Positions 2,623 through 32,202 of a stretch of 64,000 nucleotides of DNA are shown piece after piece; the first letter of the stretch is position 1; every line of letters starts with the position of its first letter. The DNA lies in NCBI GenBank assembly GCA_024654445.1, contig JANLHP010000022.1:15332-79331 (forward strand), read 5' to 3'. A program made the translations under genes and the position numbers. The notes under the pieces were generated by a model, which was not told where the DNA came from, did no database searches, and saw only the letters and a program-made list of their open reading frames with translations. This DNA comes from Candidatus Curtissbacteria bacterium. Its GTDB lineage: Bacteria > Patescibacteriota > Microgenomatia > Curtissbacterales > GWA2-41-24.

Positions 2623-4119
2623 ATGACAAAGATCGTAAAGATTCAACTCATTTTATTCTCAGCGTTATTGATATTATGGAATATTTTTACACCTATTCTA
2701 GAAGGCGCCGATGAATCCGGACATTTTTGTCACGCTGACTATATTGCGCATAAAGGGAAAATTCCTAACATTAAAATCCAAGACGGTTGCTATCTTTGGC
2801 ACCCACCATTCTATTATTCAATGTTGGCACCAATCATAAAAGTGTTTGGCTTGCCAGAGTATCCCCAAAGCCAATTAGAGATGAATCCCAACTTCAACTT
2901 ACTTAGAAAAGGAGAGTATTCTCAGTTTGTACACACTAAGGAAGAATTGATGCTTGGCTGGGGACGCCTCGAATTCTTAGTCCATACTTTAAGATTATTT
3001 TCTGTACTTTGCGCCATTGGCATCTTTTTGATTGCAGTTCAATTATTAAAATTCACCTTGAAAAACGAAAGCCAAAGAACCCTAAGCCTACTCTTTCTTT
3101 TCAACCCCATGTTTATTCATATTTTTACCACGCTTACAAACGTAACCCTATTAAGTTTTATTTCCGCACTTTTTCTTTTTATTGAATTAAAATACTTCAA
3201 AAGCTTAAAACCTGCAAAAATTCACGTCCTTCAAGGCTTTTTACTGGGTATCGGATTTTTAACTAAAATAACCTTCGTTGCAGCCGGAGCGTTCTATTTA
3301 AGTGTTGCTTTGTTAAAATTAAGAAACAGACCTGAAAGCCTTAGAAGAAGTGCAATAGAAATATTAATCTTTATATCGACTTTCATGATCGTCACTGGAT
3401 GGTACTTGGCAAGAGCTCTCACTCTTTATGACACGCCTCTGGAAATTAACGCGCTCACTCAAGCGCAAGGAGGAGACCACCATTTAGATCTTCTAGAAAA
3501 TATTGGCCCTTTAAATTATTGGAATAGTTTTGCCTTAACACTGTTTAGAACTTTTTGGTCTGGGTATGGAGCGCTGACAGTACGCTTTCCTGAAATATTA
3601 AATTTAGTTTTACTTATCAGCGTTATGCTCGTAATAATAGCAGCAATTAAAAAATGGAAAAGAACAAATGCTTACTTCAAATTGTCAGCACTTTACTTAG
3701 CGGTAACTTTCATAACTCTAATCATCGGAAATTTCACACTATCTGCAATGCATGCAAAGGATCTATTCCCCGCGTACTTACCAATCTCTTTCTTATTCGC
3801 TTATGGGGCGAGCAATTTGACAAAAGTATTTAAAAAAAACGGAAAAATGATTTTTTTGGGAATTCCCGTAGCGATCTATTTTTTTGCACAAAACGAAGTT
3901 GTTGGAATTCTAAAATTACTGTTCTTCCAAGAATCTCAAGGGGCTTACTTAAAACCTCTAATTGTTAAGGTGACGACTGTTCTAGCTCTGTATGGTCTTA
4001 TTTATCAAGGGCTAAAAAAATTAAAGATAAATAACAGGTGGCATATCAAAATTACGTTTACTTTATTTGTCGCCAATATTGTAATTCTAGCAATTTCCAC
4101 CTACTTATTTTACAGCTGA
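2623..4119 (+). CDS. Polytopic membrane protein, DUF2142/GT-C-like putative glycosyltransferase.
   Basis: An acidic DE-x-x-H motif in the first extracytoplasmic loop (ADESGHFCHADYIAH) and many TM helices. It is a paralog of the ORF at 58124..59707 (PDEQAHF). Confidence 0.45.
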   Translation: MTKIVKIQLILFSALLILWNIFTPILEGADESGHFCHADYIAHKGKIPNIKIQDGCYLWHPPFYYSMLAPIIKVFGLPEYPQSQLEMNPNFNLLRKGEYSQFVHTKEELMLGWGRLEFLVHTLRLFSVLCAIGIFLIAVQLLKFTLKNESQRTLSLLFLFNPMFIHIFTTLTNVTLLSFISALFLFIELKYFKSLKPAKIHVLQGFLLGIGFLTKITFVAAGAFYLSVALLKLRNRPESLRRSAIEILIFISTFMIVTGWYLARALTLYDTPLEINALTQAQGGDHHLDLLENIGPLNYWNSFALTLFRTFWSGYGALTVRFPEILNLVLLISVMLVIIAAIKKWKRTNAYFKLSALYLAVTFITLIIGNFTLSAMHAKDLFPAYLPISFLFAYGASNLTKVFKKNGKMIFLGIPVAIYFFAQNEVVGILKLLFFQESQGAYLKPLIVKVTTVLALYGLIYQGLKKLKINNRWHIKITFTLFVANIVILAISTYLFYS

Positions 4120-5045
4120 GGTTTTTTAATAATGTATTCAAGTTTCATCGGAAGAATTCCGACTTCAGAAAACGCAGCGCGCAGCAGCTTCTTCGGTAAA
4201 GAAATTAAAACTAGCAGCAGTTGATTTTTAGACCTTTTTTGGTTCCAGTGCTTTTTAATTTGTCCTGACAAGTCACGGTTGGCCTCGACAGACGACCACT
4301 CAATTTCTAGCTTGTTTGCTCTGCACAACCTTTCAATTAGCCTGTTGTTTGTGTAATTAAGCGAGAAAACAAAGTCTTTTACTACGGAGTAGTCTCTTTC
4401 TCTTACCCAATTAACCTTTCTAATATTTAAAAACTTCAACGCAAAAAGTGCCCACAGCGAAAAAACCCTCTTTGGCATTAAAGGAAAGTATGGTAAATGA
4501 TAATGTTGTTCTACAGGGAAAAAATAATTAGGACAACTCAAATATATAAATCCGCCAGGTTTTAATATTCTCGCAAGTTCCTTCAGAGACTTCTCCGGAT
4601 CTTGAACATGCTCCAAGACCTGAGAAAAGACGCATAGATCAACGACCCCACTTTTTAGAGGTATCTTTTCAGCGGTGCCATCAATTACTTTTAACCGCCC
4701 CTTTTTCTTTCGAAGCTTATTGTAATAGTACTTAATAATTTTTCTATCTTTAGTGCTTGGCTCTATCGCAACGACCTCAAATCCAAGCGATACTAAATTC
4801 AAAGAAAATTGCCCATATCCGGCCCCAATGTCTGCAATCAATCCCGGAGTTTTGTTCGTATTAGATAATATGTGCCTAACAGTCCTTGCCGTCAGCTTAA
4901 AGGACTCCGCGAAAAACTTTTCCAAAGACTCGGTCGACCCATTCCAATATTTGTTATTTAATTCAACCCATAGCTTATCTTTGTCTTCGGCCTTCGAATA
5001 CATTAAGTCGACCGGAAGATTTTTGCGTCGAGTATCAGAAGTCAT
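4110..5045 (-). CDS. Class I SAM-dependent methyltransferase.
   Basis: Motif I DIGAGYG, motif post-I VVAIEPS and motif II LKPGGFIYLS, as in the Methyltransf_11/12 family. Confidence 0.8.
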   Translation of the reverse strand: MTSDTRRKNLPVDLMYSKAEDKDKLWVELNNKYWNGSTESLEKFFAESFKLTARTVRHILSNTNKTPGLIADIGAGYGQFSLNLVSLGFEVVAIEPSTKDRKIIKYYYNKLRKKKGRLKVIDGTAEKIPLKSGVVDLCVFSQVLEHVQDPEKSLKELARILKPGGFIYLSCPNYFFPVEQHYHLPYFPLMPKRVFSLWALFALKFLNIRKVNWVRERDYSVVKDFVFSLNYTNNRLIERLCRANKLEIEWSSVEANRDLSGQIKKHWNQKRSKNQLLLVLISLPKKLLRAAFSEVGILPMKLEYIIKKPQL

Positions 5046-5068: not shown

Positions 5069-5210
5069 GGACTAAAGCCCATGATTAGGCCCGGAATCAC
5101 ATTTAGTTACATAAATATGACGAGGACCGCATGGCACTGTAGGTTTTGACATTCGCTTAAAGAATCACTCTCAGCCTCAACTTGAAAGCTGGGGCTTCTC
5201 GCTCACAATA
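5069..5210 (+). repeat. Intergenic repeat element, copy A (forward). Its 3' part overlaps the C-terminal codons of the ORF 5177..6709.
   Basis: Shares ggactaaag..ttaggcccgga..GACGAGGACCGCAyGGCAyTGTA..ttttgaYATTCGCT..ctcgctcaYaata with copies at 17461, 35631 and 63582. Confidence 0.8.
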
Positions 5211-6709
5211 ACCTTGTTTATAAATTTGTCGATCTCCATAAAAGATTTGATGCCAAAAGCAGAAACATAATGATTCGAAAATTTATTTTGATAAAATCTC
5301 TGCCTTTTTAGTTTATTTTTGTCGTATAAAATCTTTTTAATGCCAACATCAATATCTTCAAGCTGATCAAATTTTATGTTTATCGAGCTCTTACTTTTAA
5401 CAAAAGGATCCCCGAATTTTCCAGACAGAAATGAATTATCGAAGTAGAGTGTTGGCTTATTTTTCAAAATTGCAATCAGACCCGCAGTTGTCGCGCCTGT
5501 TATTACAACGTCACTCTTATTAATAACATTTTCTACCTTACTTGAATTATCCACCTTTACATTTGCGGGAAGTTCCAGATCGTCAAGGTCGTCCCTTAAA
5601 GAATAAGAAGGGTGGTTTCTCAGAATAATTCTAAATCCCGAATCTAATTTTGAAAGCCCTTTAACTAGCTTTTCAATCGATTGTTTATTCGAGTACCTTA
5701 AAAAAAGAGACAAAGTTCCAAAAATAGGTGCCCATAAAACTAAAACGTTTATGATCTTTTTTTCTTTCAAGTTAACATGATTAATGTGTTTCGGCCTTTT
5801 ATAATACGGACAGCCGGCTATATATGCATTTTTAGGGTGGATCATTTTCGCCAGTCTGCCCCATACCAAATAATAATCAGAAAAGTAAAAATCAGATTCA
5901 ATTATTTCCCAGGTCGCTATTCCATGTTGAATTTCAGCAACCTTTATTCCAAATGACTTCGCCATTAAAGCAAAAGCTGAGCCAAATGTATCATTGCTCG
6001 TTGAAGTTAAAATAACTTGAGGTTTCGCTCGTAAATAAAGATAAAAGGCAAAATTTAAAAAAGAAACAATTTCAGGAAACAAAAAAAGCCTTAAATACCA
6101 TAATCTGAGCGTCCAGGGTCGACCGGCAAGAAGTGCATTCTCATTTTCTACCCGCCATCTTCTAAAGACAAAAAAAGATAAGGCTTTCAACCGCTCGCGT
6201 CGTGATTGGTACCTTTGAGTGTTGGTGAGATTTAAAAATGAAATATTGATACTTTTCAGATATTTTTGATCAACCTCTGTTATTTTCCCGACGACTAAAA
6301 CCTTCCTCCTCTTTGAGAGGTACTTAATGAGTGGCAAAAGACCACTTAGGTGCCTGCCGCTAGCCACTATTAAAACCTCAGATGCCACATGTGGCCATTT
6401 AATTTTTGCCCTTGGCGCCACAATCAATTTAAGAAGGTGAGTAAGCTTTGATGCATATTTAAGTGCCTTTCGGCCGGGACTTAAGGAGTAAGCAAACGTT
6501 TGTGGGTATTGTCCCCAAACGTCATCTATAGGCTGCTTTTGTAAAAGCGACGAAAAAAAATGATGCTGAGAGAAAGCCTGAATTTTTTCCAGTGATATGC
6601 CATAAAACTTATAATTATTATTCGGATAATACTTGGAGATCCAGTTTTTCGACAAATCAACTGAATAGTCGTACAAGTTTTTTGACTTATTAAATGAGGA
6701 AGCAATCAC
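5177..6709 (-). CDS. GT-B-like protein with an HP motif; putative CMP-ulosonic-acid (sialyl/Kdo-type) transferase. A TagF-like glycerophosphotransferase is the alternative.
   Basis: It carries an RNHPSY (HP) motif and a GCPYY motif, and is paralogous to 15055..16371 (RPHPW, GTPRFE). It lies between a methyltransferase and the nonulosonate synthase operon. Confidence 0.35.
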   Translation of the reverse strand: MIASSFNKSKNLYDYSVDLSKNWISKYYPNNNYKFYGISLEKIQAFSQHHFFSSLLQKQPIDDVWGQYPQTFAYSLSPGRKALKYASKLTHLLKLIVAPRAKIKWPHVASEVLIVASGRHLSGLLPLIKYLSKRRKVLVVGKITEVDQKYLKSINISFLNLTNTQRYQSRRERLKALSFFVFRRWRVENENALLAGRPWTLRLWYLRLFLFPEIVSFLNFAFYLYLRAKPQVILTSTSNDTFGSAFALMAKSFGIKVAEIQHGIATWEIIESDFYFSDYYLVWGRLAKMIHPKNAYIAGCPYYKRPKHINHVNLKEKKIINVLVLWAPIFGTLSLFLRYSNKQSIEKLVKGLSKLDSGFRIILRNHPSYSLRDDLDDLELPANVKVDNSSKVENVINKSDVVITGATTAGLIAILKNKPTLYFDNSFLSGKFGDPFVKSKSSINIKFDQLEDIDVGIKKILYDKNKLKRQRFYQNKFSNHYVSAFGIKSFMEIDKFINKVIVSEKPQLSS

Positions 6710-8250
6710 TTTTCTATTAGGTCCCAGGAAAGGGGGGTGCCGAGCTCTATATCGTAGAGTGCCCGACTGCCTATAATATCATCCCACTCTCGAGGAGGCA
6801 ATCCATTACTAGGTCTTACCGTTTTAATATTTCTTGAAGAGAATTTCTCACCCTTCTTAATATCCTTAGAGACAAAAATAGAAGGCCTAAACCGCATGTT
6901 ATATTCCTCGGCACTATTTAACGGGCCATATTTAACCTCGCCCTTCGCCCCTTCATTTCTTCTTATCTTTTTCACCATTTGCCCAAATTCTTCTGGCTCT
7001 AATGAAAATCTGGAGTCCGGCCCTCCGCGAGAGCGTTTTGTAATTAAATGCTTTTCAATGATTGAAGCACCCATAGTTGCCGCAATCGTTGGGGCTATGA
7101 TTCCCGCGTTGTTGTCGGAGAAACCGCTAACCACCCCAAACTTCTCCTGAAGGTCACCTATTGTCCTAAGATTCATGCTGGAAAGTAGGGGACTGGCAGA
7201 ATACTGAGTTACGCAATGCAAAAGAGCAATTTCACCAGAACCATATTTTTTTAACGTATCAACTGCAAGCTCAATTTCCCAAAGGGCCGCAAAACCAACA
7301 GACATAATGACGGGTTTTTTAGTTTGAGCAACCTTTCTTATTAAAGGAATGTCTACAACTTCATAAGAGGCGATCTTATAACAGGGAACCTTCAACTTTT
7401 CCAAAAAATCCACAGCGGTCTCGTCAAAGGGAGTTGAAAAAAAAATTAGGCCTAACTCTTCCGCAACTTTTTTGAGCTTAGTGTGCCACTCCCAGGGAGT
7501 ATAGGCAGTCTTATAAAGGTCGTAAAGCGTTTCATTCTTCCAAGCCTCAGGAGTCTTTTTGCCTCTGACAATAAACCATTCCTTATTCGACTTAAGTGTT
7601 ATTGTGTCAGGCGTGTACGTCTGAATCTTCACCGCGTCCGCTCCCGCTTCTGCGGCTGCTTTAATTAACCTTACAGCCTCCTCAAATTTTTGGTTATGAT
7701 TACCCGAAATTTCGGCAACGACAAAACAAGGGAATTGAGAACCAATACTCCTAGTTCCAAGTTTTATAAACGGTTTTTTAATATTTCCATATTTCTTTTT
7801 AAATAAAACCATTTCAATCGCCTTTTCTTTTTCCCTAGACTTCAGGCCCGTGCTCACAAAACCGGCGTCTAAAAAACTCTTTTTCGAGCTAATATTTATG
7901 GGCTTTATATATGCTCTGATTTCACGAAGAGCTGCGGAATTTTCAAAAGCATAATCACATGCTTTCTGAATTAAAACAGGACCGTATCCACGGCCGCGGT
8001 ACTTATTAACCAGAGAGATACTAATTTCGCCAACGTCTCTATTTAAATCAACTCTGACCTGACCGGCAGGAAGGCCGTCAACCTCCGCGACAAATAAGTA
8101 AGTATTTTTATCACCTAACTTACCCATAAACCACTTAGTGTGATCATCAAGCTTAACTGGGCTACTATTAAAGCTGTTTTCCTTGACAGTTGGATCATTC
8201 CTTAAGCTGTAAAAAAAGGCAAGATCAAATTTATTCGCTTTTCGCAGCAT
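6706..8250 (-). CDS. Fusion of a GNAT N-acetyltransferase and a NeuB-family nonulosonic acid synthase (PseH-PseI-like), with a C-terminal SAF domain. The ORF-track start at 8358 is probably too far upstream; the likely start is MLRKANKF.
   Basis: The N-terminus has GNAT motifs (RGRGYG). The middle section FVVAEISGNHNQKFEEA...AGADAVKIQTY is the NeuB/PseI TIM-barrel signature. The C-terminal SAF domain is present. Confidence 0.8.
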   Translation of the reverse strand: MLRKANKFDLAFFYSLRNDPTVKENSFNSSPVKLDDHTKWFMGKLGDKNTYLFVAEVDGLPAGQVRVDLNRDVGEISISLVNKYRGRGYGPVLIQKACDYAFENSAALREIRAYIKPINISSKKSFLDAGFVSTGLKSREKEKAIEMVLFKKKYGNIKKPFIKLGTRSIGSQFPCFVVAEISGNHNQKFEEAVRLIKAAAEAGADAVKIQTYTPDTITLKSNKEWFIVRGKKTPEAWKNETLYDLYKTAYTPWEWHTKLKKVAEELGLIFFSTPFDETAVDFLEKLKVPCYKIASYEVVDIPLIRKVAQTKKPVIMSVGFAALWEIELAVDTLKKYGSGEIALLHCVTQYSASPLLSSMNLRTIGDLQEKFGVVSGFSDNNAGIIAPTIAATMGASIIEKHLITKRSRGGPDSRFSLEPEEFGQMVKKIRRNEGAKGEVKYGPLNSAEEYNMRFRPSIFVSKDIKKGEKFSSRNIKTVRPSNGLPPREWDDIIGSRALYDIELGTPLSWDLIEK

Positions 8251-8260
8251 TAGCTTGCTG

Positions 8261-9388
8261 TCAATTTTTTTCTTCATCCCAAATATTATCTTTTTCCCAC
8301 TTCCCTTTGTTTTTTCTCCATACTCTCGCATCTCGAAATTGGTCAGCAGTTTTATCAAACTCTTTTTCCTTCATTCCGACATATTGCAACCATCGTTTGA
8401 GATCACGAGGTTTGACATGATCATATTTTCTTACCAAATCTATGGCTTTTTTTCTTGTAATATAACCGCTCCTTATATCTTTACATGCATGATCAGTAGC
8501 TCTTCCATAACCAAATTTGACAAACTTTAAATAGTCATGCACACCATTTTCATGCATGTCGTCAAGATTGGAAAATCTACGGTAAGTTCTGTCAAATGGC
8601 TTCTTAGATTGTTGCCAATTGTATAATCTTTGCATCAATTTGTATTGCTTATTTGCGTCCCAGTCAACGTAATTTCCTAAATATATACCTCTAACTTCAG
8701 ATTCCTCGAGTTCTTCTTCGGTCGGATATTTGGCCCAAAGCAAGTCTTGCTCCTTCAAACCTTCTTCACCTACCATATCGTACCAATCAAAGCCCCTTAA
8801 GGCGTGTTCAAACCTATACTTCGCTGTCATCTCGGGAAATTCATCTGCTCTATACATTCCCCCCAGGTCGGTATATCCATGTTCTCCCCAGACGATTAAC
8901 TTAATTTTAAATTTAACCGCAATTTGCACCGGATATGTAAAGATGCCGCAATGAGCATGCCAGTTCATGTCGCCCATCTTCTTGAAACAAATACGGTTCA
9001 GTTTAACCAAAACGTCAACATTAGGTTTGAATATGATGTGATCCACGTTAAACACATGATGCATACGATTCAAGTTATATTCTCCCTCAGGAAGATAATT
9101 ATTTCCGTGGTAAGTGACAAGAAGCGGTTTTAATTTTAATACCTTTGTAACATAGTGAGTTTGAAAGTAACTATCTTTCCCTCCGGAAACGGGAATAATG
9201 CAATCATAATTTGAGCCGTTAGAAACACGAGAGTCTTCTGCTAAACTCTCAAGTAATTTAGCCCTTTTTCTCCAATTAATTTTTTTCCGTGCTTCTGAAA
9301 CTCGGCAACCAGAACAAACTCCGTCATTGTCGAAAGTTAATTTAACAGCAGAGGAAATTGGGTAAACACATTTAGTACAGTACTGCAT
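8261..9388 (-). CDS. N-acetyl sugar amidotransferase (PseA/WbuX/LpsA family, PP-loop ATP pyrophosphatase).
   Basis: PP-loop SGGKDS and an N-terminal CxxC...C zinc-ribbon-like start (MQYCTKCVYP...GVCSGC). It is adjacent to HisH/HisF paralogs. Confidence 0.85.
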   Translation of the reverse strand: MQYCTKCVYPISSAVKLTFDNDGVCSGCRVSEARKKINWRKRAKLLESLAEDSRVSNGSNYDCIIPVSGGKDSYFQTHYVTKVLKLKPLLVTYHGNNYLPEGEYNLNRMHHVFNVDHIIFKPNVDVLVKLNRICFKKMGDMNWHAHCGIFTYPVQIAVKFKIKLIVWGEHGYTDLGGMYRADEFPEMTAKYRFEHALRGFDWYDMVGEEGLKEQDLLWAKYPTEEELEESEVRGIYLGNYVDWDANKQYKLMQRLYNWQQSKKPFDRTYRRFSNLDDMHENGVHDYLKFVKFGYGRATDHACKDIRSGYITRKKAIDLVRKYDHVKPRDLKRWLQYVGMKEKEFDKTADQFRDARVWRKNKGKWEKDNIWDEEKN

Positions 9389-9397
9389 AACTTATGT

Positions 9398-10192
9398 CTA
9401 AAACCTAACGTCCAGCCCAGCATCTACCATGAATTTTTTAGCGTGCCTTGTCGATTGCTCTGTGAAGTGAAAAATATTAGCTGCAGACACAGCACTCGCA
9501 CCGCCAATTTTTATACCGTCTACTAGATTTTGCCAGTTTCCAACGCCCCCGCAAGCAATCACAGGAACGTTAACTTTATTCGTAATTTGTTTTAAAAGAG
9601 GTAGATCATAACCCTTTAGAGTCCCATCTCTATCGATAGAATTCAAGAATATCTCGCCAGCTCCTAGTCTTTCTGCCCTTATCGCCCAAGACTTTGGGTC
9701 CAGACCGGTTGCTTCTGTGCCGTGATTTATAAAAACCTCATATTTATCCTTGCCAATAGTCTTCGCGTCAATAGAAACTACAACCGCTTGACTGCCAAAT
9801 AGCCTAGCCGCTTCGGTAATTAAAGAAGGATTTCTAACAGCCATAGTGTTGATAATAATTTTATCAACACCACTTTTAAATAAAATATGCATATCGTCAA
9901 CAGACTTGATACCTCCGCCCGCCGCCAGGGGAACGAAACAGGTTTTCGCGCACTCTTTTATAATTTCTACAAAATCCTCAAGCATCTTAAAGTTATAGTC
10001 AGTCCTAATCAACTTTTGATATTCCTTTGTTTTACTGATGTCCAAAAAAATTATTTCATCGACGGACCAAGCATTGAAGTATTGAATCGCAACCTTTGGA
10101 TTGCCGACGATCTGGTATTCAGAAAACTTCAGGCTCTTAACAAGCTGCCCATTCTGGAGAAGTAAGCATGGAGCGAGTCTCTTTTTAAGCAT
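9398..10192 (-). CDS. Imidazole glycerol phosphate synthase cyclase-subunit paralog (HisF-like, WbuZ-type).
   Basis: HisF (beta/alpha)8 signatures (LDISKT..., GGGIKS, ACGGVG). No other his genes are present, and it is coupled to the amidotransferase. Confidence 0.85.
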   Translation of the reverse strand: MLKKRLAPCLLLQNGQLVKSLKFSEYQIVGNPKVAIQYFNAWSVDEIIFLDISKTKEYQKLIRTDYNFKMLEDFVEIIKECAKTCFVPLAAGGGIKSVDDMHILFKSGVDKIIINTMAVRNPSLITEAARLFGSQAVVVSIDAKTIGKDKYEVFINHGTEATGLDPKSWAIRAERLGAGEIFLNSIDRDGTLKGYDLPLLKQITNKVNVPVIACGGVGNWQNLVDGIKIGGASAVSAANIFHFTEQSTRHAKKFMVDAGLDVRF

Positions 10193-10802
10193 CCTTAAAA
10201 TTTAGAAAATTTTCAAGAATTCTAAGACCACTTTTTTGACTACGCTCGGGGTGAAATTGGACTCCAAACAAATTATCCACCGCAACAGATGCTGTAAATT
10301 CCTCTCCGTATTCACAAGTTGCTGTCACTACGCCGCTTTCGTCAGGAGCTAAGCAGTAACTATGTATAAAATAAAAAACACTGGGTTTAACATTTTCAAA
10401 AAGAAGAGAGTTATCGGCGGGGTAAACGTCATTCCATCCAATGTGGGGTAGCCTGAAGTGTTTTTTGCTCACGCTCAATTTTCGAGTTTTACCCTTAACC
10501 CAACCCAAACCTTTATGCAATCCACCTTCTTCGCCGACTTCCGCCAGAAGTTGCATGCCTAAACATATACCCAAGAAGGCCTTTTTATTCTTCAGGACCT
10601 GCCCTTCCAATGTTTTTATAAGACCTCTCTCCGCCAGCTTATTCATGCCGTCACTAAAAGTTCCCACCCCGGGTAAAATTATATGAGTCGCTCTGTCAAA
10701 ATCTTTCGATTCCCTTGAAATTTTGCTCTCTGCACCTAAAGCATCCAAAGCGTTTTTTACCGAAGCTACATTCCCCATGTCATAGTCAACAATAATCACC
10801 AT
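10185..10802 (-). CDS. Glutamine amidotransferase HisH paralog (WbuY-type).
   Basis: Class I GATase catalytic triad region (GICLGMQLL, HPE near the C-terminus). Its start overlaps the HisF-like gene by 8 nt. Confidence 0.85.
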   Translation of the reverse strand: MVIIVDYDMGNVASVKNALDALGAESKISRESKDFDRATHIILPGVGTFSDGMNKLAERGLIKTLEGQVLKNKKAFLGICLGMQLLAEVGEEGGLHKGLGWVKGKTRKLSVSKKHFRLPHIGWNDVYPADNSLLFENVKPSVFYFIHSYCLAPDESGVVTATCEYGEEFTASVAVDNLFGVQFHPERSQKSGLRILENFLNFKDA

Positions 10803-11581
10803 TTGCGCAAGACCTTCCAAGACTGCTGTTCGAGTTTTATATTCAACATCGCGAGTTCTTGATTTTGGTCCAAATATCTAAGAACCTTTTTAACATCAAC
10901 AATCGCATTTTCCCTGAAGAAGTTATCATAAATTTTCCTCATTAACAATAAATCTTTTTCCCAGTCAACCGTCAGTCTGTAATTTCGGTAGTAGTTTGGA
11001 TCTAATTTTGGCGTCTTTCCTATAATAAACTCTCGATTTCGGTTAAACCACATATAAGGGGTCACATGTTCTTTCTCGTAGGAAGTTTTAGCGGCCCTAT
11101 AAGCCTTAAAAAGCGCATTAGAAGAAAATACTTCGACATCTAGGCCAATAGGCAAACTCCTTGTTACGTGGTCTGTGGTACTTAAATAATCAACTTTACC
11201 TCTTATAAATTCTCGAATACATACATCAATAATCTGGGGATCAATCAAGGGATTGTCGGCAGTTATCCTTACAATAATCCCGCAATCAAATTTTTTTGCG
11301 GTATTGTAAAATCTTGATAAAACGTTTTTCTTATTGCCACGAAAACATTGCAATTGTTCTTCTTTTGCGAACTTTTCTAGAATATCATTGTCTTTTGATC
11401 TAGGAATTGAAACAATAATATGCTTTATCCTTTTAGAATATTTTAATCTATTACAAATATGCCAAAGTAGAGGCTTTCCGGCTAATTCTGCCAAAATCTT
11501 GCCCGGTAGCCTCTCCGAATCAAATCTCGCTTGAATTATCGCACAAACGCTTTGTATATTATCCGTTCGTCCCCTCACCAT
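10796..11581 (-). CDS. Cytidylyltransferase of the CMP-nonulosonate synthetase type (PseF/SpsF-like).
   Basis: N-terminal AIIQARFDSERLPGKIL nucleotide-binding motif, typical of the acylneuraminate cytidylyltransferase/SpsF family. Confidence 0.7.
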   Translation of the reverse strand: MVRGRTDNIQSVCAIIQARFDSERLPGKILAELAGKPLLWHICNRLKYSKRIKHIIVSIPRSKDNDILEKFAKEEQLQCFRGNKKNVLSRFYNTAKKFDCGIIVRITADNPLIDPQIIDVCIREFIRGKVDYLSTTDHVTRSLPIGLDVEVFSSNALFKAYRAAKTSYEKEHVTPYMWFNRNREFIIGKTPKLDPNYYRNYRLTVDWEKDLLLMRKIYDNFFRENAIVDVKKVLRYLDQNQELAMLNIKLEQQSWKVLRKW

Positions 11582-12372
11582 GAAGTCCAGCCCCCATCAA
11601 CAACGAAATTCTCTCCTGTGATAAAACCGGAAGCATCACTTGAGAGCAGCGCAAACAAGCCTTTCAAGTCCTCGGGATTACCCAACTTATCAAGCATTGT
11701 CTTGCTTTTTAGCCTCTCACCGAATTTCTTGTCCCGAGCCACGTTTTCTTTAGGAAAAGGCCCTGGAGAAATTGAATTTACACGGATACCATACCTACCC
11801 CAGTAAGAAGCCAGATATTTTGTAAGCTGAATAATCCCCGCTTTGGCGATTGTGTACGTCGGTGGAATATTGAAATTATTGTCAGTGTATAGCCTCCAAT
11901 CCGGCGATTGAAGTCCGTACATTGAAGATATATTAATAATTGAACCTTTCGCCTCTCTCTTCATAAGAGGGAAAACAAGCTGGCTGCACCTCAGTGTACT
12001 CCAAAGAACACCGTTTAAACTACTCTCAAATTCGTCATAAGCTAAGTTGGTGGATACCTTTTCCTGATGAATAGCGTTATTTATAAGAATGGCTATGGAC
12101 GGGAGCCCTTTTATTTCATTGGAAAACTTAAGAAAAGAATTGCTGCTTGTAAAATCCAAGTCTTTAACAATAACTCTGGATTCTCCAAATTCCTTGAGCA
12201 ATCCACGAGCGACGGTAGCTCTTTTTTTAGCAGTCTTCTGCGTTGTAGTTACAACAACAGTTGCTCCTAATTCAAGAAGTGTTTCTGTCGCGGCTAAGCC
12301 TAAATGTCCCAAACCACCCGTCACAATCGCTGTCCTATTTTCTAAACTGATTAAGTCCGCCAGGCTTCTCAT
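11575..12372 (-). CDS. Short-chain dehydrogenase/reductase (SDR).
   Basis: TGGLGHLG Rossmann motif, NAIH, and YTIAKAG (YxxxK) active site. Confidence 0.75.
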   Translation of the reverse strand: MRSLADLISLENRTAIVTGGLGHLGLAATETLLELGATVVVTTTQKTAKKRATVARGLLKEFGESRVIVKDLDFTSSNSFLKFSNEIKGLPSIAILINNAIHQEKVSTNLAYDEFESSLNGVLWSTLRCSQLVFPLMKREAKGSIINISSMYGLQSPDWRLYTDNNFNIPPTYTIAKAGIIQLTKYLASYWGRYGIRVNSISPGPFPKENVARDKKFGERLKSKTMLDKLGNPEDLKGLFALLSSDASGFITGENFVVDGGWTSW

Positions 12373-13274
12373 AGCTGCAAGTTCCAACAGGCAGGGTTTG
12401 TGTACTTCTCTTCCAAAATGGGAATGCGTTGTGCAAGTTTATCAAATACTACTTGATCAATGTGAGCCTCAAAAGCAGACACGTCCGTCTCTAACTGTTT
12501 TGGCGAGGTTATCCCTATTACTAAAGGACCAAAGTTCTTGTTTGCAATGAATTGAATAAGTAACTCTTCGCGCGGTACTTTATATGAGTCCAAATATTTA
12601 TAGAACGTGTTCAGCTTACCCTTTACGTCCCCAAAGTATTCCGGTAAATTTTTAGTGCTCATCAGTAGCACTCCTTGAAGAAACACACTCCTTTGAACAA
12701 TGAGCTTACCCTTTTTCTGCAGTAATTTCATTTTGCCTTGGCTTTCAAAGTCCCGACTTAGGATATTATGGGGGATTTGATAAACATCAATCTCATCATA
12801 TTTAAGCGCTCTGTCCACATCTCCTGGATCATATAAGGAGATACCGATATATCTGATTAGACCCCGCTTTTTATAGTCATATAAAATATCCAAAAAAATA
12901 TCAGGATTTGCAAAAAAACCTTCGAAATCGTGGATATAAATAATATCCAAATGCTTTCTGTGAAGTCGACCCAGAGAAGTCTTCAACGAGTCCAAAATTT
13001 CCTTAGAGGAATCTTTAGATTTAAACGCAGTCAGCTTAGTGGCAATTATTACATTTCGTCTTCCAAGAACTTCCCCTATTATTTTTTCACTCCCCCCGTA
13101 GCTACTCGCAGTGTCAAAAAAGTTAATTCCGCGGTCAAGTGCAGCGTTTAGTATACACTTGGTTGTGTTCGTTGAAACTTGGTTCTTATTGGCGATACCG
13201 TATTGTTGTCCAAATTGAGCGCATCCCAAACAAAAGGAAGAAAGCTCTAAATCTTTGTATTTAAATACATTCAT
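12369..13274 (-). CDS. Aldo/keto reductase.
   Basis: AKR TIM-barrel signatures (FFDTASSYGGSE, IGISLYDP). Confidence 0.8.
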   Translation of the reverse strand: MNVFKYKDLELSSFCLGCAQFGQQYGIANKNQVSTNTTKCILNAALDRGINFFDTASSYGGSEKIIGEVLGRRNVIIATKLTAFKSKDSSKEILDSLKTSLGRLHRKHLDIIYIHDFEGFFANPDIFLDILYDYKKRGLIRYIGISLYDPGDVDRALKYDEIDVYQIPHNILSRDFESQGKMKLLQKKGKLIVQRSVFLQGVLLMSTKNLPEYFGDVKGKLNTFYKYLDSYKVPREELLIQFIANKNFGPLVIGITSPKQLETDVSAFEAHIDQVVFDKLAQRIPILEEKYTNPACWNLQL

Positions 13275-13933
13275 GTTAAATCTTTTTTCATAAAATATTT
13301 TATAATTTTACCAATTTCGGATTTAATTTCCTCTGGATTCATTCCTCTTCTGTCTAGTAGAAAAAATTCGTAATCTTTTTTACCCAAATACTTTCGCGCA
13401 TATCTTGCAGATCGCGGGCCGTGGTATGCATGAGTGACAATGGCCAACTTTTTAAAATTTAATTTACCCAACTCTTTAAATTGGTCAAGCGTTGAAATTA
13501 GAGGGACTGGGGGCATATTAGACAACTTTATTACGTTTGAAGAATCAATGTTTTTTGCCAGTTTTCTCATCAAATCATTTTGTGCTTCAGTGCCTGTTAA
13601 AACTAACTTTGGGCCCCGGCTACTAAAACTTGCTAGCTTCTTATAGATCGTAAGCCCGTAAGCTGTTCGTTGTTCTGTGTCTCTTAAATTTGTTTTAAGT
13701 GCCGGATCACCGCTTTCACCCGAAAGTATAGCAACAGCTTCAATTCCAGCATCGATTTTGGGATCAACAGAGTTTCTTACTGATTCGAATTCTTGCTTTA
13801 ATTTATTTTCGACTTCAAGAAAATCCAGGCCTATCAGGCCTCGGATGAATTGAAGAGAAAACATACTTTTGAGCCTGAAAGGCGAATATCGAGGGCTTTT
13901 AGCCCTCGGAAGTTTATCTCGAATATTCACCAA
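13271..13933 (-). CDS. DUF218/YdcF-like protein.
   Basis: LAIVTHAYHGPRSARYARK resembles the conserved DUF218 motif. Confidence 0.4.
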   Translation of the reverse strand: MVNIRDKLPRAKSPRYSPFRLKSMFSLQFIRGLIGLDFLEVENKLKQEFESVRNSVDPKIDAGIEAVAILSGESGDPALKTNLRDTEQRTAYGLTIYKKLASFSSRGPKLVLTGTEAQNDLMRKLAKNIDSSNVIKLSNMPPVPLISTLDQFKELGKLNFKKLAIVTHAYHGPRSARYARKYLGKKDYEFFLLDRRGMNPEEIKSEIGKIIKYFMKKDLT

Positions 13934-15071
13934 TCACATCCTTAAAAGTTTTTATTACATAATCTATTTGTTTTTTTGACAAATCCGGAAAAAGCGGTAA
14001 CGAGATTTCCGATTCATAAACAGATTCGGAAATTGGAAAATCACCTCTTTTAAATCCAAATTTTTTTCGATAATATGGCTGAAGATGGACGGGAATATAA
14101 TGGACCTGAACACCGAGCCCTCGATCCTTCAGCTCGTCAAAAATCCTCTTCCTTGAAACTTTAATCTCGTCCAGCTTTAAAAGCGCAGTAAACAAATGCC
14201 AAACGGCAAAACTAGAATTGTTTTCCTTCGGCACATCAATAGGCAAGTCACTAAATGCTTTCCTATACACATCAACGACCAATCTACGCGCTCCAATGAA
14301 CCTTTCTATCCTCGAGAGTTGTGACACACCAAGGGCGGCTTGAAAATCGGTTAGTCGAAAATTTAAACCAAGTTCCTGCATCTCATAATACCAACCGCCA
14401 ACATTATTTTGTAAATTCTTTCTTGTGATCCCATGGTTTCTAAAAATAAGAAGCTTTTCCCATAACTTTTTGTCGTTTGTGACCGCCATACCTCCTTCAC
14501 CAGTCGTTATTGTTTTAACAGGATGGAAAGAAAAACATGTTATATCAGCAATTGTTCCTATCATCCTCCCTTTATATTTAGAGCCGATCGAGTGAGCCGC
14601 GTCATCAATTGTTACAAGGCCATAATTTTTAGCGATTCTTTTGATTCTATCCCAATCACAGGGATTACCGGCGAAATCAACCGCCAAAATCGCCTTTGTC
14701 TTCTTATTTATCGCCTGCTCAATCCGATCAGCATTAATGTTTAAGGTTGCAAAGTCAATGTCGACGAATTTGGGAATTCCTCCGAACCAGACAAAACAAT
14801 TGCTTGATGCTGCGAATGTGTAAGGTGTGGTTATTACTTCATCGCCCGAACCGATTCCGGAGGCGAAACAACTTGCAACAAGAGCGGATGCGCCGGAATT
14901 AAACGCTACAGCGTATTTTGCTCCGACGTAATTCGCAACCGCATTTTCAAATTCAAGAACCTCGGGTCCTTGGGTAATAAAATCAGATTTTAAAACTCTG
15001 GTCACTGCCTCGATATCTTTCTGGTTAATCGATTGGTGAGAGTAGGGGATCAGCTTAAGCGGTCTTTTCAT
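13914..15071 (-). CDS. DegT/DnrJ/EryC1-family PLP aminotransferase (PseC-like UDP-4-keto-sugar transaminase).
   Basis: SFHPVKTITTGEGGMAVTN contains the PLP Lys and is typical of the sugar aminotransferase class. Confidence 0.85.
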   Translation of the reverse strand: MKRPLKLIPYSHQSINQKDIEAVTRVLKSDFITQGPEVLEFENAVANYVGAKYAVAFNSGASALVASCFASGIGSGDEVITTPYTFAASSNCFVWFGGIPKFVDIDFATLNINADRIEQAINKKTKAILAVDFAGNPCDWDRIKRIAKNYGLVTIDDAAHSIGSKYKGRMIGTIADITCFSFHPVKTITTGEGGMAVTNDKKLWEKLLIFRNHGITRKNLQNNVGGWYYEMQELGLNFRLTDFQAALGVSQLSRIERFIGARRLVVDVYRKAFSDLPIDVPKENNSSFAVWHLFTALLKLDEIKVSRKRIFDELKDRGLGVQVHYIPVHLQPYYRKKFGFKRGDFPISESVYESEISLPLFPDLSKKQIDYVIKTFKDVIGEYSR

Positions 15072-16371
15072 TCTCCTTCTGGATAATTGTCTCGCATAAC
15101 CTTTTCAGATTTAAAGAATAATTCCTTGTATCTTCCGAAAGATAATAGTTGAGATTGCTATATTTACTCTTAGAATTAACCTTTGCATTAGAAATGTTGG
15201 GATTATTAAATATGTACTTCAACTTTTCTATTTTGTCGACAATTATGACATTTGGTAACTGTTCGATTTTCCGGAAATGTTCATAATATTTAAAAGCGTT
15301 TTTCGGCGATGTTAGATGAATTCCATCATCGTAAGTAATAACAAAAACTTTTTTATTAAAAATTAGCCCTTCAATCAGCATTGTAGATAGGGGACATATC
15401 ATAAACTCCATATTAGAAAGAAGCCTTGGATAATAATCCAAGCCCGGGATAATATTGTTCTGCTCCCTTTTGTAATAAGCTCTGGCATCAGTGTCTAAAA
15501 TAACATTTTTAAAATCCCAATCAAAAAATGTATCAAAAGATTTTCGTGGATGTCTCCAAGGATGTGGCCTGTAAACGATCTTAATTTGATCCTCTAAATG
15601 ACTTATTATTCCATCAAGCTCCCTCAAAGTTGAAATCTCGTCAAAAGGAATTGCATTGCCCGAAAAAAGAGCAAAGCGGAATGGGTAAGGAGAAGGTAGC
15701 TTTTCACTCCTTTGCCGAAAATAGCTTTCAAATCTCGGCGTCCCAAGAACAAAGACTCTCTCGCGGTCGACGTTATGAATTCTCATAGTATGTTCGACCG
15801 ACTGTTTTCCCCAAACAGCCAAGTAATCCGGACGTCTTGTAAATATCGTCTTGCTGCAAAGATTGTCCCAATTATCAATTAAAAGGCATACCGGAATTTG
15901 ATACTTTTTTGCAATCCTAATAAACTCAAAAGTGACACCTTCAAATCCGCTTGATGGGATTAAAATTAAGGATGGTTTAGTTTTTTCAATTAACTCTTCC
16001 AATTCTTTATCTTTAGTACCAAGAAAAACGTAAAGTTTAAATAAGTCATAAATAACAGGAAATGAGAGCAGTGAGTATTTAATCTTAAGAAATTTAGGCA
16101 GCCTCATAAAACGGAACTTAAAAGTTAAACTCCTATTTCCGTATCTTCGGGTATTTGTGTTGAATAAGTGAAAATGTAGTCTTGCCTTTTCTTTTGAGTA
16201 AGAGAATTCTAAAACTCTATCCCTTTTAGCCTGAGGAATTTGCTTTCGTGTCAAATCCTTATTTAAAAGAAAAGTGCAGTCGGCTTTAATTTCAGAAAGG
16301 CAATTAGAAGTTATATAGTTTCTATAATACTCGTTCGTATTTATAACAAAGACAATGTTATTTTTAGACAT
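15055..16371 (-). CDS. GT-B-like protein with an HP motif, paralogous to 5177..6709; putative CMP-ulosonate transferase or TagF-like transferase.
   Basis: RPHPWRHP and GTPRFE motifs. It is embedded in the Pse-type operon between the aminotransferase and the 4,6-dehydratase. Confidence 0.35.
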   Translation of the reverse strand: MSKNNIVFVINTNEYYRNYITSNCLSEIKADCTFLLNKDLTRKQIPQAKRDRVLEFSYSKEKARLHFHLFNTNTRRYGNRSLTFKFRFMRLPKFLKIKYSLLSFPVIYDLFKLYVFLGTKDKELEELIEKTKPSLILIPSSGFEGVTFEFIRIAKKYQIPVCLLIDNWDNLCSKTIFTRRPDYLAVWGKQSVEHTMRIHNVDRERVFVLGTPRFESYFRQRSEKLPSPYPFRFALFSGNAIPFDEISTLRELDGIISHLEDQIKIVYRPHPWRHPRKSFDTFFDWDFKNVILDTDARAYYKREQNNIIPGLDYYPRLLSNMEFMICPLSTMLIEGLIFNKKVFVITYDDGIHLTSPKNAFKYYEHFRKIEQLPNVIIVDKIEKLKYIFNNPNISNAKVNSKSKYSNLNYYLSEDTRNYSLNLKRLCETIIQKENEKTA

Positions 16372-16380
16372 AAAACGAAG

Positions 16381-17376
16381 TTAATAACCTGCGCCATCTG
16401 AAGCTATATCAGAAATAAGTGTTTTAATCTTCTCCGCGCTAAGCCATTTGTTATTGTTGTCGCTGCTATACATAAATCCGTCAACTGGCTTCTTTTTAAC
16501 TTTACTGCTACCGGCCCACCAGTCGAATTCCGGTTCAATTAAAAAATAGTTCTTAAATTCCCTTGTATGTCTTGATTCGTCAAAACTAATCAACGCTTCG
16601 TGGAGCTTTTCACCGGGTCTTATTCCAACAATTCTAATTTTAGAATTTGGAGAAATAGCCTTTGCAACTTCAGTAATCCTGACACTTGGAATTTTTGGTA
16701 CGAATATCTCTCCGCCCTTCATTTTTCCAAGTGTATTTATAACCAGCTCAACCCCCTGCTCCAAGGTAATCCAGAATCTTGTCATTCTAATGTCGGTTAT
16801 CGTAATGTGATTATTTTTCGCTTGAGAAATAAAAACAGGAACAACACTACCACGCGAGCCCATTACATTTCCGTACCTTACAACACTAAACTTCGTACTC
16901 TTTTCCCCTCCATAAGAATTCGCTTGAATGAAAATTTTCTCGGCAACCATTTTAGTGGCACCGTATAAGTTTACTGGAGAAACTGCTTTATCTGAAGAAA
17001 TTAAAATAACTTTTGAAACATTTTCATCAAGCGAAGCCTCAATGACATTCTCACTCCCCATAATGTTTGTGTGAATTGCTTCAAAAGGGTTATACTCTAA
17101 AAGAGGCACCTGCTTAAGGGCCGCGGCGTGTATTACATAATCTACGCCAACAATTGCTCGCTTTAATCTTCTTAAGTCCCTTACATCTCCCAATAAAAAT
17201 CTTAACCTTTTGTCTCCCTGATATTTCGCCATAAGTGCGTGTTGCTTAAATTCATCCCTGGAATAAATTCTAATAACACCCTTAAAAGTTTTTTGCGAAA
17301 GTAGATGAGCGATAAATGCTTTTCCAAATGATCCAGTGCCGCCTGTTAGAAGAATTGTTTGTTTTGTTAAATTCAT
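16381..17376 (-). CDS. pseB: UDP-N-acetylglucosamine 4,6-dehydratase (PseB/FlaA1/CapD family).
   Basis: LLTGGTGSFGKAF Rossmann motif and YGATKMVAEK catalytic YxxxK. Length and domain order match PseB/FlaA1. Confidence 0.8.
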   Translation of the reverse strand: MNLTKQTILLTGGTGSFGKAFIAHLLSQKTFKGVIRIYSRDEFKQHALMAKYQGDKRLRFLLGDVRDLRRLKRAIVGVDYVIHAAALKQVPLLEYNPFEAIHTNIMGSENVIEASLDENVSKVILISSDKAVSPVNLYGATKMVAEKIFIQANSYGGEKSTKFSVVRYGNVMGSRGSVVPVFISQAKNNHITITDIRMTRFWITLEQGVELVINTLGKMKGGEIFVPKIPSVRITEVAKAISPNSKIRIVGIRPGEKLHEALISFDESRHTREFKNYFLIEPEFDWWAGSSKVKKKPVDGFMYSSDNNNKWLSAEKIKTLISDIASDGAGY

Positions 17377-17460
17377 GAAGTCAAAAGTCTCCGTATTTTA
17401 TGCGAATTGTTGCCACATTTACAAGGTGATCACATAAAGTACAGCTCAGAAGTTACTTTA

Positions 17461-17701
17461 TTATGAGCGAGAATTCCTCGGCCTTTAAAGCCGAGGATGA
17501 GAGTGAGCGAATATCAAAATATGCACTGCCCTGTGGTCCTTATCAAGTCAGACTCGACTCCAGGCTTAATCGTGGACGAAAATCCGCATGTAGTTTATCG
17601 ACTTACCAGAAGACCACGGCTTCCAGCCGTGGATGAATGGCAGGAGGCGATTCAGACCAAGCGAAGCTTGAATTGAGTTGAAAGAGGACCACGGGCTATG
17701 C
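17461..17701 (-). repeat. Intergenic repeat element, copy B (inverted, 17461-17600), plus an additional forward core-like segment at 17681-17701.
   Basis: The reverse complement of 17461-17600 aligns nearly base-for-base with copy C, including the perfect hairpin CCTCGGCC-TTTAAA-GGCCGAGG. Confidence 0.8.
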
Positions 17702-17711
17702 CTGTGGGAAT

Positions 17712-20664: not shown

Positions 20665-20706
20665 TTTCTTCTTAAGGCCATTATTATAGCAATACTGCTC
20701 TCGTGC

Positions 20707-22535: not shown

Positions 22536-22546
22536 AACGCTAGTTT

Positions 22547-24331: not shown

Positions 24332-24351
24332 TATTTCTTTTTTCGAACCTG

Positions 24352-24384
24352 CTTGCCTCGCTCCGCTTGCGAAGCGGGTCGAGA
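24352..24384. terminator. GC-rich hairpin (CCGCTT-GCGA-AGCGG) in the short gap between the ALS-like and DmpG-like genes; a possible attenuator or terminator.
   Basis: Perfect 6-bp stem flanked by A/T runs. Both flanking genes are on the minus strand. Confidence 0.25.
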
Positions 24385-24398
24385 AAAAACGAACTTTT

Positions 24399-32189: not shown

Positions 32190-32202
32190 ACTTTAAAAAA
32201 GA

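Follow-up and report, generated by a model that had tools for sequence, protein, structure and literature searches.

Two HP-motif proteins of a Curtissbacteria glycan island as candidate CMP-ulosonate transferases

We analyzed two open reading frames (ORFs) in a stretch of 64,000 nucleotides, called the window in the following, which is part of a contig from a metagenome-assembled genome (MAG) of Candidatus Curtissbacteria. This bacterium belongs to the candidate phyla radiation (CPR, Patescibacteria). The two genes, ORF 5177-6709 and ORF 15055-16371, are named A and B (Table 1). From sequence comparison we consider it probable, if by no means certain, that both proteins are glycosyltransferases (GTs) of the HP-motif GT-B superfamily with CMP-ulosonates as donors. 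A would transfer a derivative of pseudaminic acid (Pse) and B the product of a second gene cassette. We base this proposal on the fold, the conservation of motifs, homology links and synteny. The superfamily also holds the Tannerella transferases for Pse and legionaminic acid (Leg), the TagF-like enzymes and the GT38 polysialyltransferases. The proposal is not categorically new, as TagB-like HP-motif transferases for nonulosonic acids (NulOs) are known from Tannerella; A and B themselves stand outside every curated family.

Sequence families, motifs and models of A and B

Both ORFs are intact and found where a previous reading of the bare DNA sequence (below, the sequence-only reading) had placed them; their products are identical to the NCBI hypothetical proteins NUV69_04095 (A) and NUV69_04150 (B). 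Translation confirms the two boxes which that reading had described as shared, RNHPSY/RPHPW and GCPYY/GTPRFE. The second box comprises residues 299-303 of A (GCPYY, nucleotides 5801-5815) and residues 210-214 of B (GTPRF(E), nucleotides 15730-15744). A pairwise BLASTP alignment of A and B has 22% identity over 258 aa (E = 5e-4) with both boxes in register. When the profiles of the two families are compared with hhalign, the probability is 89.3% (E = 2e-6, 190 columns), and a D-Y-x-x-V-W-G box and an [ST]-T loop are paired as well. Nevertheless, the hidden Markov model (HMM) of each family does not detect the other ORF in the window. Of the paralogy that had been claimed, homology thus holds and close kinship does not: judged by sequence, A and B are distant members of one superfamily and not recent paralogues.

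The AlphaFold models (pLDDT 87 for A and 93.5 for B) are confident, and both have the classical GT-B fold with two Rossmann domains, so that the description of the proteins as GT-B-like was correct. The top structural neighbors of A are MurG (17.8), NeuC (17.5), GT4 enzymes (~17) and TarL (16.3), and Foldseek against the PDB returned only generic GT1 and epimerase neighbors for A. Profile searches against the PDB sequences yielded noise only for A and no match for B.

The families differ greatly in size. Close relatives of A are restricted to eight among 5.8 billion clusters; a repeated search seeded with the A alignment returned the same nine proteins, and a scan of the JGI metagenomes for relatives of A returned none. 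The A profile reaches about 2,000 more distant proteins, mostly of about 600 aa. Ten of these were scanned, and most match NF046086, TIGR04396 and TIGR04326 below the cut-offs. B, on the other hand, has homologs in more than 525 clusters, and a DNWDNLSSK-type pattern of the N-domain recovered relatives in 32 GTDB species genomes from many phyla. The carriers include Vampirovibrionales, Latescibacterota, Bacteroidota, Rhodobacteraceae, SAR86, SAR116, Pelagibacteraceae and Prochlorococcus. Among 62 aligned members of the B family, no Pfam family is matched by more than four. As far as such searches tell, the B family is in practice undescribed by the curated models of Pfam and NCBIfam.

The (K/R)xHP motif follows the first strand of the C-terminal domain in both proteins. 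R364 and H366 of A are invariant in the nine family sequences; in the B family R268 and P269 are present in 62 of 62 members, H270 in 55 and P271 in 54. A second conserved site lies in the N-domain. The E259-I-Q-H262-G263 loop of A aligns with a QHG sequence of a TagF-like Bacillus protein and with the D166-N-W-D169 loop of B. In the latter motif W168 and D169 are invariant, K174 is found in 60 and D166 in 54 of the 62 sequences. The third site is the loop T407-T-A-G410 of A, to which S329-T330-M331 of B aligns; M331 and E334 of B are invariant, T330 is conserved in 56 of 62 members, and the B loop also aligns to the DSGGiqEE sequence of WecB. Further conserved residues are SGRH117-120, N239-D240 and D278/W283 in A and P181-D182, W187/Q190, G210-x-P212 and D348-D349 in B.

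Each N-domain further contains a basic and aromatic helical insert. In A it comprises 71 residues with 13 K/R, 4 D/E and 15 aromatic residues (model helices 170-181 and 197-228), in B 63 residues with 14 K/R, 2 D/E and 14 aromatic residues (helices 60-76, 82-89, 93-102 and 105-118). By their composition both inserts are putative membrane-interface elements.

Table 1. Positions of the two candidate transferases, their motifs and neighboring genes; numbers refer to the window unless a locus is named
Feature	Position	Strand	Remarks
ORF A	5177-6709	minus	510 aa, GTG start, GT-B fold; candidate CMP-pseudaminic-acid-derivative transferase
A: R364-N-H366-P367 (+SY), (K/R)xHP motif	5609-5620	minus	after strand 359-365 of the model, first strand of the C-terminal Rossmann domain
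A: E259-I-Q-H262-G263, N-domain loop	5921-5935	minus	Glu, His and Gly invariant; candidate general base
A: T407-T-A-G410 loop, N-terminus of a C-domain helix	5480-5491	minus	invariant; candidate phosphate-binding loop
A: basic, aromatic helical N-domain insert, residues 160-230	6020-6232	minus	putative membrane-interface element
ORF B	15055-16371	minus	438 aa, ATG start, GT-B fold; candidate transferase for the NeuB2-cassette product
B: R268-P-H270-P271 (+W), (K/R)xHP motif	15559-15570	minus	immediately behind the first C-domain strand
B: D166-N-W168-D169-N-L-C-S-K174 motif (DNWDNLSSK in the family)	15850-15876	minus	most conserved N-domain motif; candidate acceptor/base loop
B: S329-T330-M331-L-I-E334, C-domain loop and helix start	15370-15387	minus	candidate phosphate/ribose binding
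B: basic, aromatic helical insert, residues 58-120	16012-16200	minus	from sequence and model
PseB-like dehydratase	16381-17376	minus	Pfam/NCBIfam
PseC	13914-15071	minus	476 bits (cut-off 423.5)
DUF218 protein	13271-13933	minus	Pfam/NCBIfam
Aldo-keto reductase (AKR)	12369-13274	minus	Pfam/NCBIfam
Short-chain dehydrogenase/reductase (SDR)	11575-12387	minus	Pfam/NCBIfam
NeuA/KdsB-type cytidylyltransferase	10796-11581	minus	Pfam/NCBIfam
HisH	10185-10820	minus	Pfam/NCBIfam
WbuZ/HisF	9398-10192	minus	Pfam/NCBIfam
WbuX amidotransferase	8261-9388	minus	346 bits
GNAT (PseH-like)-PseI fusion	6706-8358	minus	PseI 434 bits (cut-off 340)
Class I SAM methyltransferase	4110-5045	minus	immediately downstream of A; Methyltransf_11 1.3e-20
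NeuB2	33504-34571	minus	304.7 bits on the NeuB model (cut-off 399.65), divergent synthase
HAD phosphatase	33005-33511	minus	168 aa, YrbI-size; Pfam/NCBIfam
SDR of the second cassette	32203-33018	minus	Pfam/NCBIfam
Aldehyde dehydrogenase (ALDH)	30726-32189	minus	Pfam/NCBIfam
NeuA-like cytidylyltransferase of the second cassette	30008-30745	minus	Pfam/NCBIfam
Transketolase-like (TK) ThDP enzyme	28070-30007	minus	Pfam/NCBIfam
Multi-pass membrane protein	17712-19394	minus	counterparts in L003, L004, L037 and L038
Multi-pass membrane protein	2623-4119	plus	counterparts in L003, L004, L037 and L038
Multi-pass membrane protein	975-2621	plus	counterparts in L003, L004, L037 and L038
Bacillus mycoides protein	L040, 2660-4063		plasmid NZ_CP131925.1; annotation: CDP-glycerol glycerophosphotransferase family; a complete Pse cluster follows directly

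Two ulosonate pathways and the gene order around A and B

From position 17376 down to 4110 the minus strand carries one tightly packed array of 13 genes, most of which have overlapping stop and start codons. The order is PseB, B, PseC, DUF218, AKR, SDR, cytidylyltransferase, HisH, WbuZ, WbuX, GNAT-PseI, A and methyltransferase. By its gene content the array encodes a single Pse pathway, and because of the WbuX, WbuZ and HisH genes the product is probably an acetamidino derivative. The GNAT and PseI parts are joined in one ORF of 550 aa and are separate genes in two related CPR loci (L003 and L004); the annotated TTG start of the fusion overlaps WbuX by 98 nucleotides, and the true start may be further downstream.

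A second ulosonate pathway spans positions 28070-34571 on the minus strand and thus lies 11.7 kb upstream of B. It consists of NeuB2, a HAD phosphatase, an SDR, an ALDH, a cytidylyltransferase (CTP) and a TK. NeuB2 scores below the cut-offs of both the NeuB and the PseI models. The sequence-only reading had each of the two ORFs co-operonic with a NeuB/Pse-type pathway of its own. It is true that both adjoin Pse genes, but they share one Pse operon.

We therefore turn to the gene order in other genomes. The loci around relatives of A and B were fetched, and their ORFs were scored against the proteins of the window (locus numbers carry the letter L). Both in the window and in the loci L003, L004 and L037, A comes directly behind a NeuB-type synthase; in L038 and L039 one tailoring gene intervenes. 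The gene after A usually codes for a methyltransferase, as also in L003 and L037, or for a GT-C-like membrane protein.

For B the picture is a different one. A NeuB-type synthase and a CTP_transf_3 cytidylyltransferase are present within about 10 kb of B in 26 of 35 distinct loci from many phyla, and 12 of the 35 have the full cassette nearby. A same-strand transketolase (10 loci) or cytidylyltransferase (5 loci) immediately precedes B in 15 cases. The complete series NeuB2-HAD-SDR-ALDH-CTP-TK is directly followed by B, with order and strand unchanged, in L003, L007, L010, L011, L013, L015 and L022; L006 has the same order with a gap of 2.7 kb before B. The cassette genes are rearranged in L001, L008, L012, L020, L031 and L033, and SAR116, Pelagibacter and Prochlorococcus have a shorter group of NeuB2, CTP and B. 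The conserved order of cassette and B extends over CPR, Melainabacteria, Bacteroidota, Latescibacterota, Nitrosomonadaceae, Oligoflexales and SAR86. A 422-aa protein beside the second NeuB in L001 was considered as a third family member and found to be unrelated.

In the closest CPR relatives, L003 and L037, the order is cassette-TK-B-PseC. The window departs from this order in that about 11.7 kb (16381-28083, with PseB, a PMT_2 protein and CDP-sugar genes) lie between TK and B. Given the cassette-TK-B order in these two loci and in other genomes, B appears by synteny to belong functionally with the second pathway. L004, which contains a Pse cluster with A and neither B nor the cassette in its 21 kb, fits a pairing of A with Pse and of B with the cassette. 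This pairing restores the idea of two sugars with two transferases contained in the sequence-only reading.

As the cassette includes an SDR and an aldehyde dehydrogenase, its product may be oxidized; a dicarboxylic "ulosaric" sugar would be one example, a Kdn-type sugar with unusual acylation another. Since the cassette contains a HAD phosphatase and no NDP-hexose nucleotidyltransferase, the pathway would be a sugar-phosphate route which does not need an NDP-sugar hydrolase. Our literature search returned no description of the NeuB2-HAD-SDR-ALDH-CTP-TK-B cassette. It is conceivable, although we regard this as a tentative suggestion, that the B family is a new glycosyltransferase family for a not yet described ulosonic acid made by the six cassette genes.

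Comparison with known families and alternative functions

In a Pfam scan with a threshold of E <= 10 neither A nor B matches any model. NCBIfam matches are limited to NF046086, TIGR04396 and TIGR04326, and all are far below the family cut-offs. NF046086, the BFO_1060 family (cut-off 200 bits), is matched by A with 33.7 bits (E = 2e-8, residues 341-476 against profile positions 203-344) and by B with 28.8 bits (E = 6e-7, residues 115-217 against positions 31-141). On TIGR04396 and TIGR04326 (cut-offs 125 and 250 bits) A reaches 30.6 and 21.2 bits and B 12.9 bits.

The link to BFO_1060 leads to enzymes whose role is known. BFO_1060 of strain 92A2 is a homolog of Tanf_01245 and TFUB4_00887, whose deletion removes the terminal Pse or Leg derivative in a donor-specific manner (PMC5420450). 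Like A and B, Tanf_01245 (for Pse5Am7Gra) and TFUB4_00887 (for a Leg derivative) are GT-B/TagB-like proteins with an HP motif; the Tannerella proteins have about 440 aa. In T. forsythia the gene order is PseG-PseI-transferase (PMC5378307), and in strain UB4 a methyltransferase is located between the Leg locus and the transferase (PMC5420450). The resemblance to A is evident: the transferase gene comes right after the NulO synthase, a methyltransferase is nearby in UB4, and the Pse sugar is of the acetamidino type. The differences are that the NF046086 match covers only half of A and half of B, that A is extended at its N-terminus by a helical region of about 100 aa, and that the T. forsythia clusters contain a canonical PseG or LegG whereas none is recognized in the operon of the window.

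A second line of evidence is the HP motif. (K/R)xHP is conserved in the sialyltransferases GT29, GT38, GT42, GT52 and GT80 and in the retaining Kdo transferases GT99 and GT107, and its basic residue contacts the cytosine (PMC12887879). This agrees with the statement of the sequence-only reading that the HP motif is common to sialyltransferases and Kdo transferases. A (RNHP) and B (RPHP) both contain the (K/R)xHP sequence typical of HP-motif CMP-sugar glycosyltransferases (PMC12887879, PMC5420450). In such enzymes the catalytic base comes from a D/E-D/E-G motif N-terminal to HP. In their N-domains A reads E259-x-x-H262-G263 and B D166-N-W-D169; the triplet D348-D349-G350 of B lies after HP.

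Similarity also extends to the polysialyltransferases of GT38 (PF07388; Mannheimia haemolytica SiaD, PDB 5wc6), which use CMP-sialic acid and share with A and B the GT-B fold and the HP motif; an acidic N-domain motif may be a further common trait. Differences are the position of the B triplet and the Pfam result: neither A nor B matches PF07388 (gathering threshold 23.3 bits) at E <= 10. A CPR protein of 338 aa in L038, in contrast, scores 27.4 bits on PF07388 and is related to the B family (hhalign 97.3%, E = 1.8e-11). Its gene (5070-6086) is found in one NulO cluster together with P0126 (10001-11542), a homolog of A with HL in place of HP in the motif. In the window itself there is no other A- or B-like gene and no Pfam match to a sialyltransferase family, in line with the earlier remark that no other sialyltransferase is present.

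KpsC and KpsS (GT107), WbbB (GT99), KrkA (GT140) and KpsS1 (GT118, for Pse) take CMP-ulosonate donors and share (K/R)xHP with A and B (PMC12887879). These enzymes have a reduced N-domain with an alpha-helical subdomain and a QxxxD nucleophile, while A and B are classical two-Rossmann GT-B proteins and have no QxxxD among their conserved motifs (B reads Q190-S-V-E-H). No structure of the KpsC/WbbB type is among the top 60 structural neighbors of A or B. The missing match to Capsule_synth (PF05159) and the different fold variant rule out that A and B are KpsC/KpsS-like proteins.

Several observations speak against our assignment. The NF046086 matches, although significant by E-value, stay far below the 200 bits required for membership, so that A and B are remote homologs of the BFO_1060 family and not members. 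The best structural neighbors are NeuC/UDP-GlcNAc 2-epimerases, MurG and GT4 enzymes, and a polysialyltransferase appears for B only at rank 21. The motif alone is no proof of the donor, as a His at the (K/R)xHP position is also found in TagF-like enzymes and 2-epimerases. Moreover, seven of the 62 B-family members lack H270. In this subclade (P0031, P0032, P0034, P0036, P0040, P0044 and P0046) RPx[ILVAQ]TQH/R replaces RPHPW, R268-P269 are kept, and in six of the seven a His is found four residues further on. From the alignment it appears that the HP histidine is either not strictly required in the B family or shifted. With respect to gene order, B is not adjacent to the cassette in the window, and some B homologs, for example in L002 and L021, have no NulO genes within 10 kb. 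Finally, no PseG (TIGR03590/PF04101) was detected in any of the window ORFs scanned.

The last point deserves closer consideration. If PseG is missing, some other gene must supply its step, and A, most plausibly, or B could be the nucleotide-sugar hydrolase, A as a non-orthologous replacement of PseG or B as a NeuC/LegG-like enzyme. Such a protein would release the free hexose which the NeuB-type synthase condenses with phosphoenolpyruvate and would not be a transferase. Searches with phmmer and the PseG proteins of Bacillus and Rhizobium gave no match in the window, and five CPR NulO loci related to it showed no gene with PF04101. When the fetched loci were searched with phmmer and two canonical PseG sequences, PseG turned up in the controls only, a result limited by the low sensitivity of single-sequence searches. 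PseG and NeuC are GT-B proteins too, NeuC is among the best structural neighbors, and A is the only GT-B gene in the otherwise complete-looking Pse cluster of L004. The minimal trios of NeuB2, cytidylyltransferase and B in SAR116, Pelagibacter and Prochlorococcus furthermore resemble NeuB-NeuA-NeuC operons.

We nevertheless consider a hydrolase function unlikely. A and B match neither TIGR03590 nor PF04101 at E <= 10, and hhalign assigns only 0.1% to a comparison of either family with Bacillus PseG. The 2-epimerase model PF02350 is not matched by A or B. In an alignment of B with WecB (hhalign probability 34%, so that the register is tentative) the WecB carboxylates D95, E117 and E131 fall on S141, K157 and N170, none of which is acidic and the first two of which are not conserved; A and E. 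coli WecB gave no hhalign alignment. Both Bacillus mycoides and T. forsythia (PMC5378307) have a genuine PseG beside their relatives of A and B. The cassette with its HAD phosphatase and without an NDP-hexose nucleotidyltransferase would not call for a hydrolase, and the basic aromatic inserts of A and B would be superfluous in a soluble one. Vampirovibrio and a Melainabacteria MAG have two B paralogs and only one cassette in the stretches examined, a pattern which is typical of transferases and not of pathway enzymes.

There is also a separate candidate for the missing step. The CPR Pse clusters have a conserved DUF218 gene in common. It stands alone in the window and in L003 (12430-12999), is fused to a PseF-like cytidylyltransferase in L004 (4401-5696) and to the PseC aminotransferase in L037 (2829-4544), and none of the DUF218-bearing CPR Pse clusters has a recognizable PseG. 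The DUF218 protein is thus a candidate for the UDP-sugar hydrolase, and Pse may be made without PseG in these CPR. Our literature search for DUF218 in connection with pseudaminic acid, or for pseudaminic acid in Patescibacteria, returned nothing relevant.

The sequence-only reading had named a TagF-like polyol-phosphate transferase as the alternative. A and B would then transfer a polyol or sugar phosphate from a CDP donor onto a wall polymer or a lipid-linked glycan and release CMP. TagF, TagB and TarL share with A and B the GT-B-like fold and a His after the first strand of the C-domain; the cytidine-nucleotide donor, the CMP leaving group and membrane-associated helices would be common to them as well. 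A two-histidine pattern, with a base in the N-domain and a phosphate contact in the C-domain, is known for TagF-like enzymes. By sequence alignment the invariant residues H262 (N-domain) and H366 (C-domain) of A may form such a pattern; B has H270 and an Asp (D166) at the N-domain position. The Gram-positive-like envelopes of CPR cells also speak for this alternative. Distant relatives of A pass the Glyphos_transf model (PF04464, gathering threshold 22.1 bits), namely P0142 with 31.2 bits and the Bacillus protein with 30.1 bits. The T. forsythia transferases give TagB-superfamily matches as well (PMC5420450).

Yet a TagF-like function, too, seems improbable to us. Neither A nor B matches Glyphos_transf at E <= 10, which excludes a confident TagF membership, and in the B family only four of 62 members match, the best with E = 0.0033. 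Together with the links to BFO_1060 and the polysialyltransferases this outcome keeps the glycosyltransferase reading standing, which a confident TagF assignment lacking any similarity to CMP-sugar transferases would have overturned. The comparison with Capsule_synth, GT38 and Glyphos_transf gave no Pfam match for either protein. The conserved neighbors are NeuB-type synthases and CTP_transf_3 enzymes of the NeuA/KdsB type, which supply CMP-ulosonates and not CDP-glycerol or CDP-ribitol; they are not of the TagD or TarI/TarJ type. In addition, the TagB-like T. forsythia proteins proved to be necessary for NulO transfer (PMC5420450).

The Bacillus mycoides protein listed in Table 1 is instructive in this context. 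It is related to both families (hhalign 95.4% with A and 94.3% with B) and has marginal matches to Glyphos_transf, Epimerase_2 and Capsule_synth together. The Pse cluster beside it has its own PseG. This "CDP-glycerol glycerophosphotransferase" may be a mis-annotated Pse transferase.

A and B could also be ordinary GT-B enzymes which use UDP-, GDP- or CDP-hexose or heptose from the same 60-kb island, the NulO genes being close by because all serve the same glycan. The island indeed encodes CDP-hexose, heptose and dTDP/GDP-type pathways but few glycosyltransferases (three GT2 and one GT4). We give this explanation little weight. B accompanies NeuB and a cytidylyltransferase across phyla whose other glycan genes differ, the RxHP motif is conserved, and the sequence links lead to the HP-motif cytidine-nucleotide families, with no match to Glycos_transf_1 or Glyco_trans_28.

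Thus, A and B as CMP-ulosonate transferases is the reading that we retain. That they are the best candidates for the transfer of the two NulOs, as had been proposed, is supported by the fold, the motif and the BFO_1060 matches, but not by the notions that each ORF has its own pathway at its side and that the two are close paralogs.

Proposed mechanism, other genes of the island and significance

We suggest that the transfer might proceed as follows. A and B would each take a CMP-ulosonic acid from the pathway of the neighboring genes and release CMP, A moving the Pse derivative of the surrounding operon and B the sugar of the NeuB2-HAD-SDR-ALDH-cytidylyltransferase-transketolase cassette. The acceptor would be a membrane-anchored (lipid-linked) glycan intermediate at the cytoplasmic face, to which the enzymes could dock via the basic aromatic helical insert. 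The C-terminal Rossmann domain would bind the donor; the Arg of RxHP could pair with the cytosine, and the His and the [ST]-T loop could hold the phosphate leaving group. To activate the acceptor hydroxyl, A might use H262 (or E259) of its N-domain as a base, and B either D166 or D169. The ABC-2 transporter at 50748-52894 could then carry the finished glycan out of the cell. CMP is the leaving group in the reactions of TagF enzymes as well as of CMP-ulosonate transferases, which is a plausible reason for their kinship.

The exporter genes at 50748-52894 (minus strand) are of the Wzm/Wzt type. The ATPase has 427 aa, of which only residues 51-182 form the ABC domain; by analogy with the Wzt proteins of O-antigen export its long C-terminal part could be a domain that binds the glycan terminus. 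Large multi-pass membrane proteins, some of them PMT_2 (GT-C)-like, flank A in every CPR locus examined. Judging from this, a GT-C-type enzyme may transfer the NulO-bearing glycan outside the membrane.

Beyond these genes the window forms an extensive glycan island with CDP-hexose, heptose and other sugar pathways, GT-C/PMT_2-like membrane proteins and the ABC-2 exporter. The region 19363-28083 looks like a CDP-hexose pathway of the branched or 3,6-dideoxy type with several thiamine diphosphate (ThDP) enzymes. Its genes code for a nucleotidyltransferase, a 4,6-dehydratase, an RfbH-like DegT protein, an acetolactate-synthase-like ThDP enzyme and a pair of a DmpG/DmpF-like aldolase and acetaldehyde dehydrogenase. 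Further ThDP/E1-type genes are found at 44159-49684, so that ThDP-type genes are unusually concentrated for a CPR genome, which is a reduced one. A heptose nucleotide-sugar pathway (35790-38700), flanked by the second NeuB cassette and by dTDP-sugar genes, encodes a GmhA isomerase, a bifunctional nucleotidyltransferase/HAD phosphatase and a GHMP kinase.

To our knowledge only few transferases for bacterial sialic-acid-like sugars have been described, namely Maf, FlmG, KpsS1 and the Tannerella enzymes, and most gene clusters for Pse, Leg and Kdn are therefore without an assigned transferase. If our assignment is correct, the cytidine-nucleotide GT-B superfamily would gain two new families of sequences with A and B. 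B represents a large and widely distributed family, not covered by existing models, which is tied to a conserved cassette, and the cassette that it terminates points to an undescribed activated sugar. The two families would provide an annotation handle for hundreds of uncharacterized genes, including those of the abundant marine lineages SAR11, SAR86, SAR116 and Prochlorococcus and of the ultra-small CPR bacteria.

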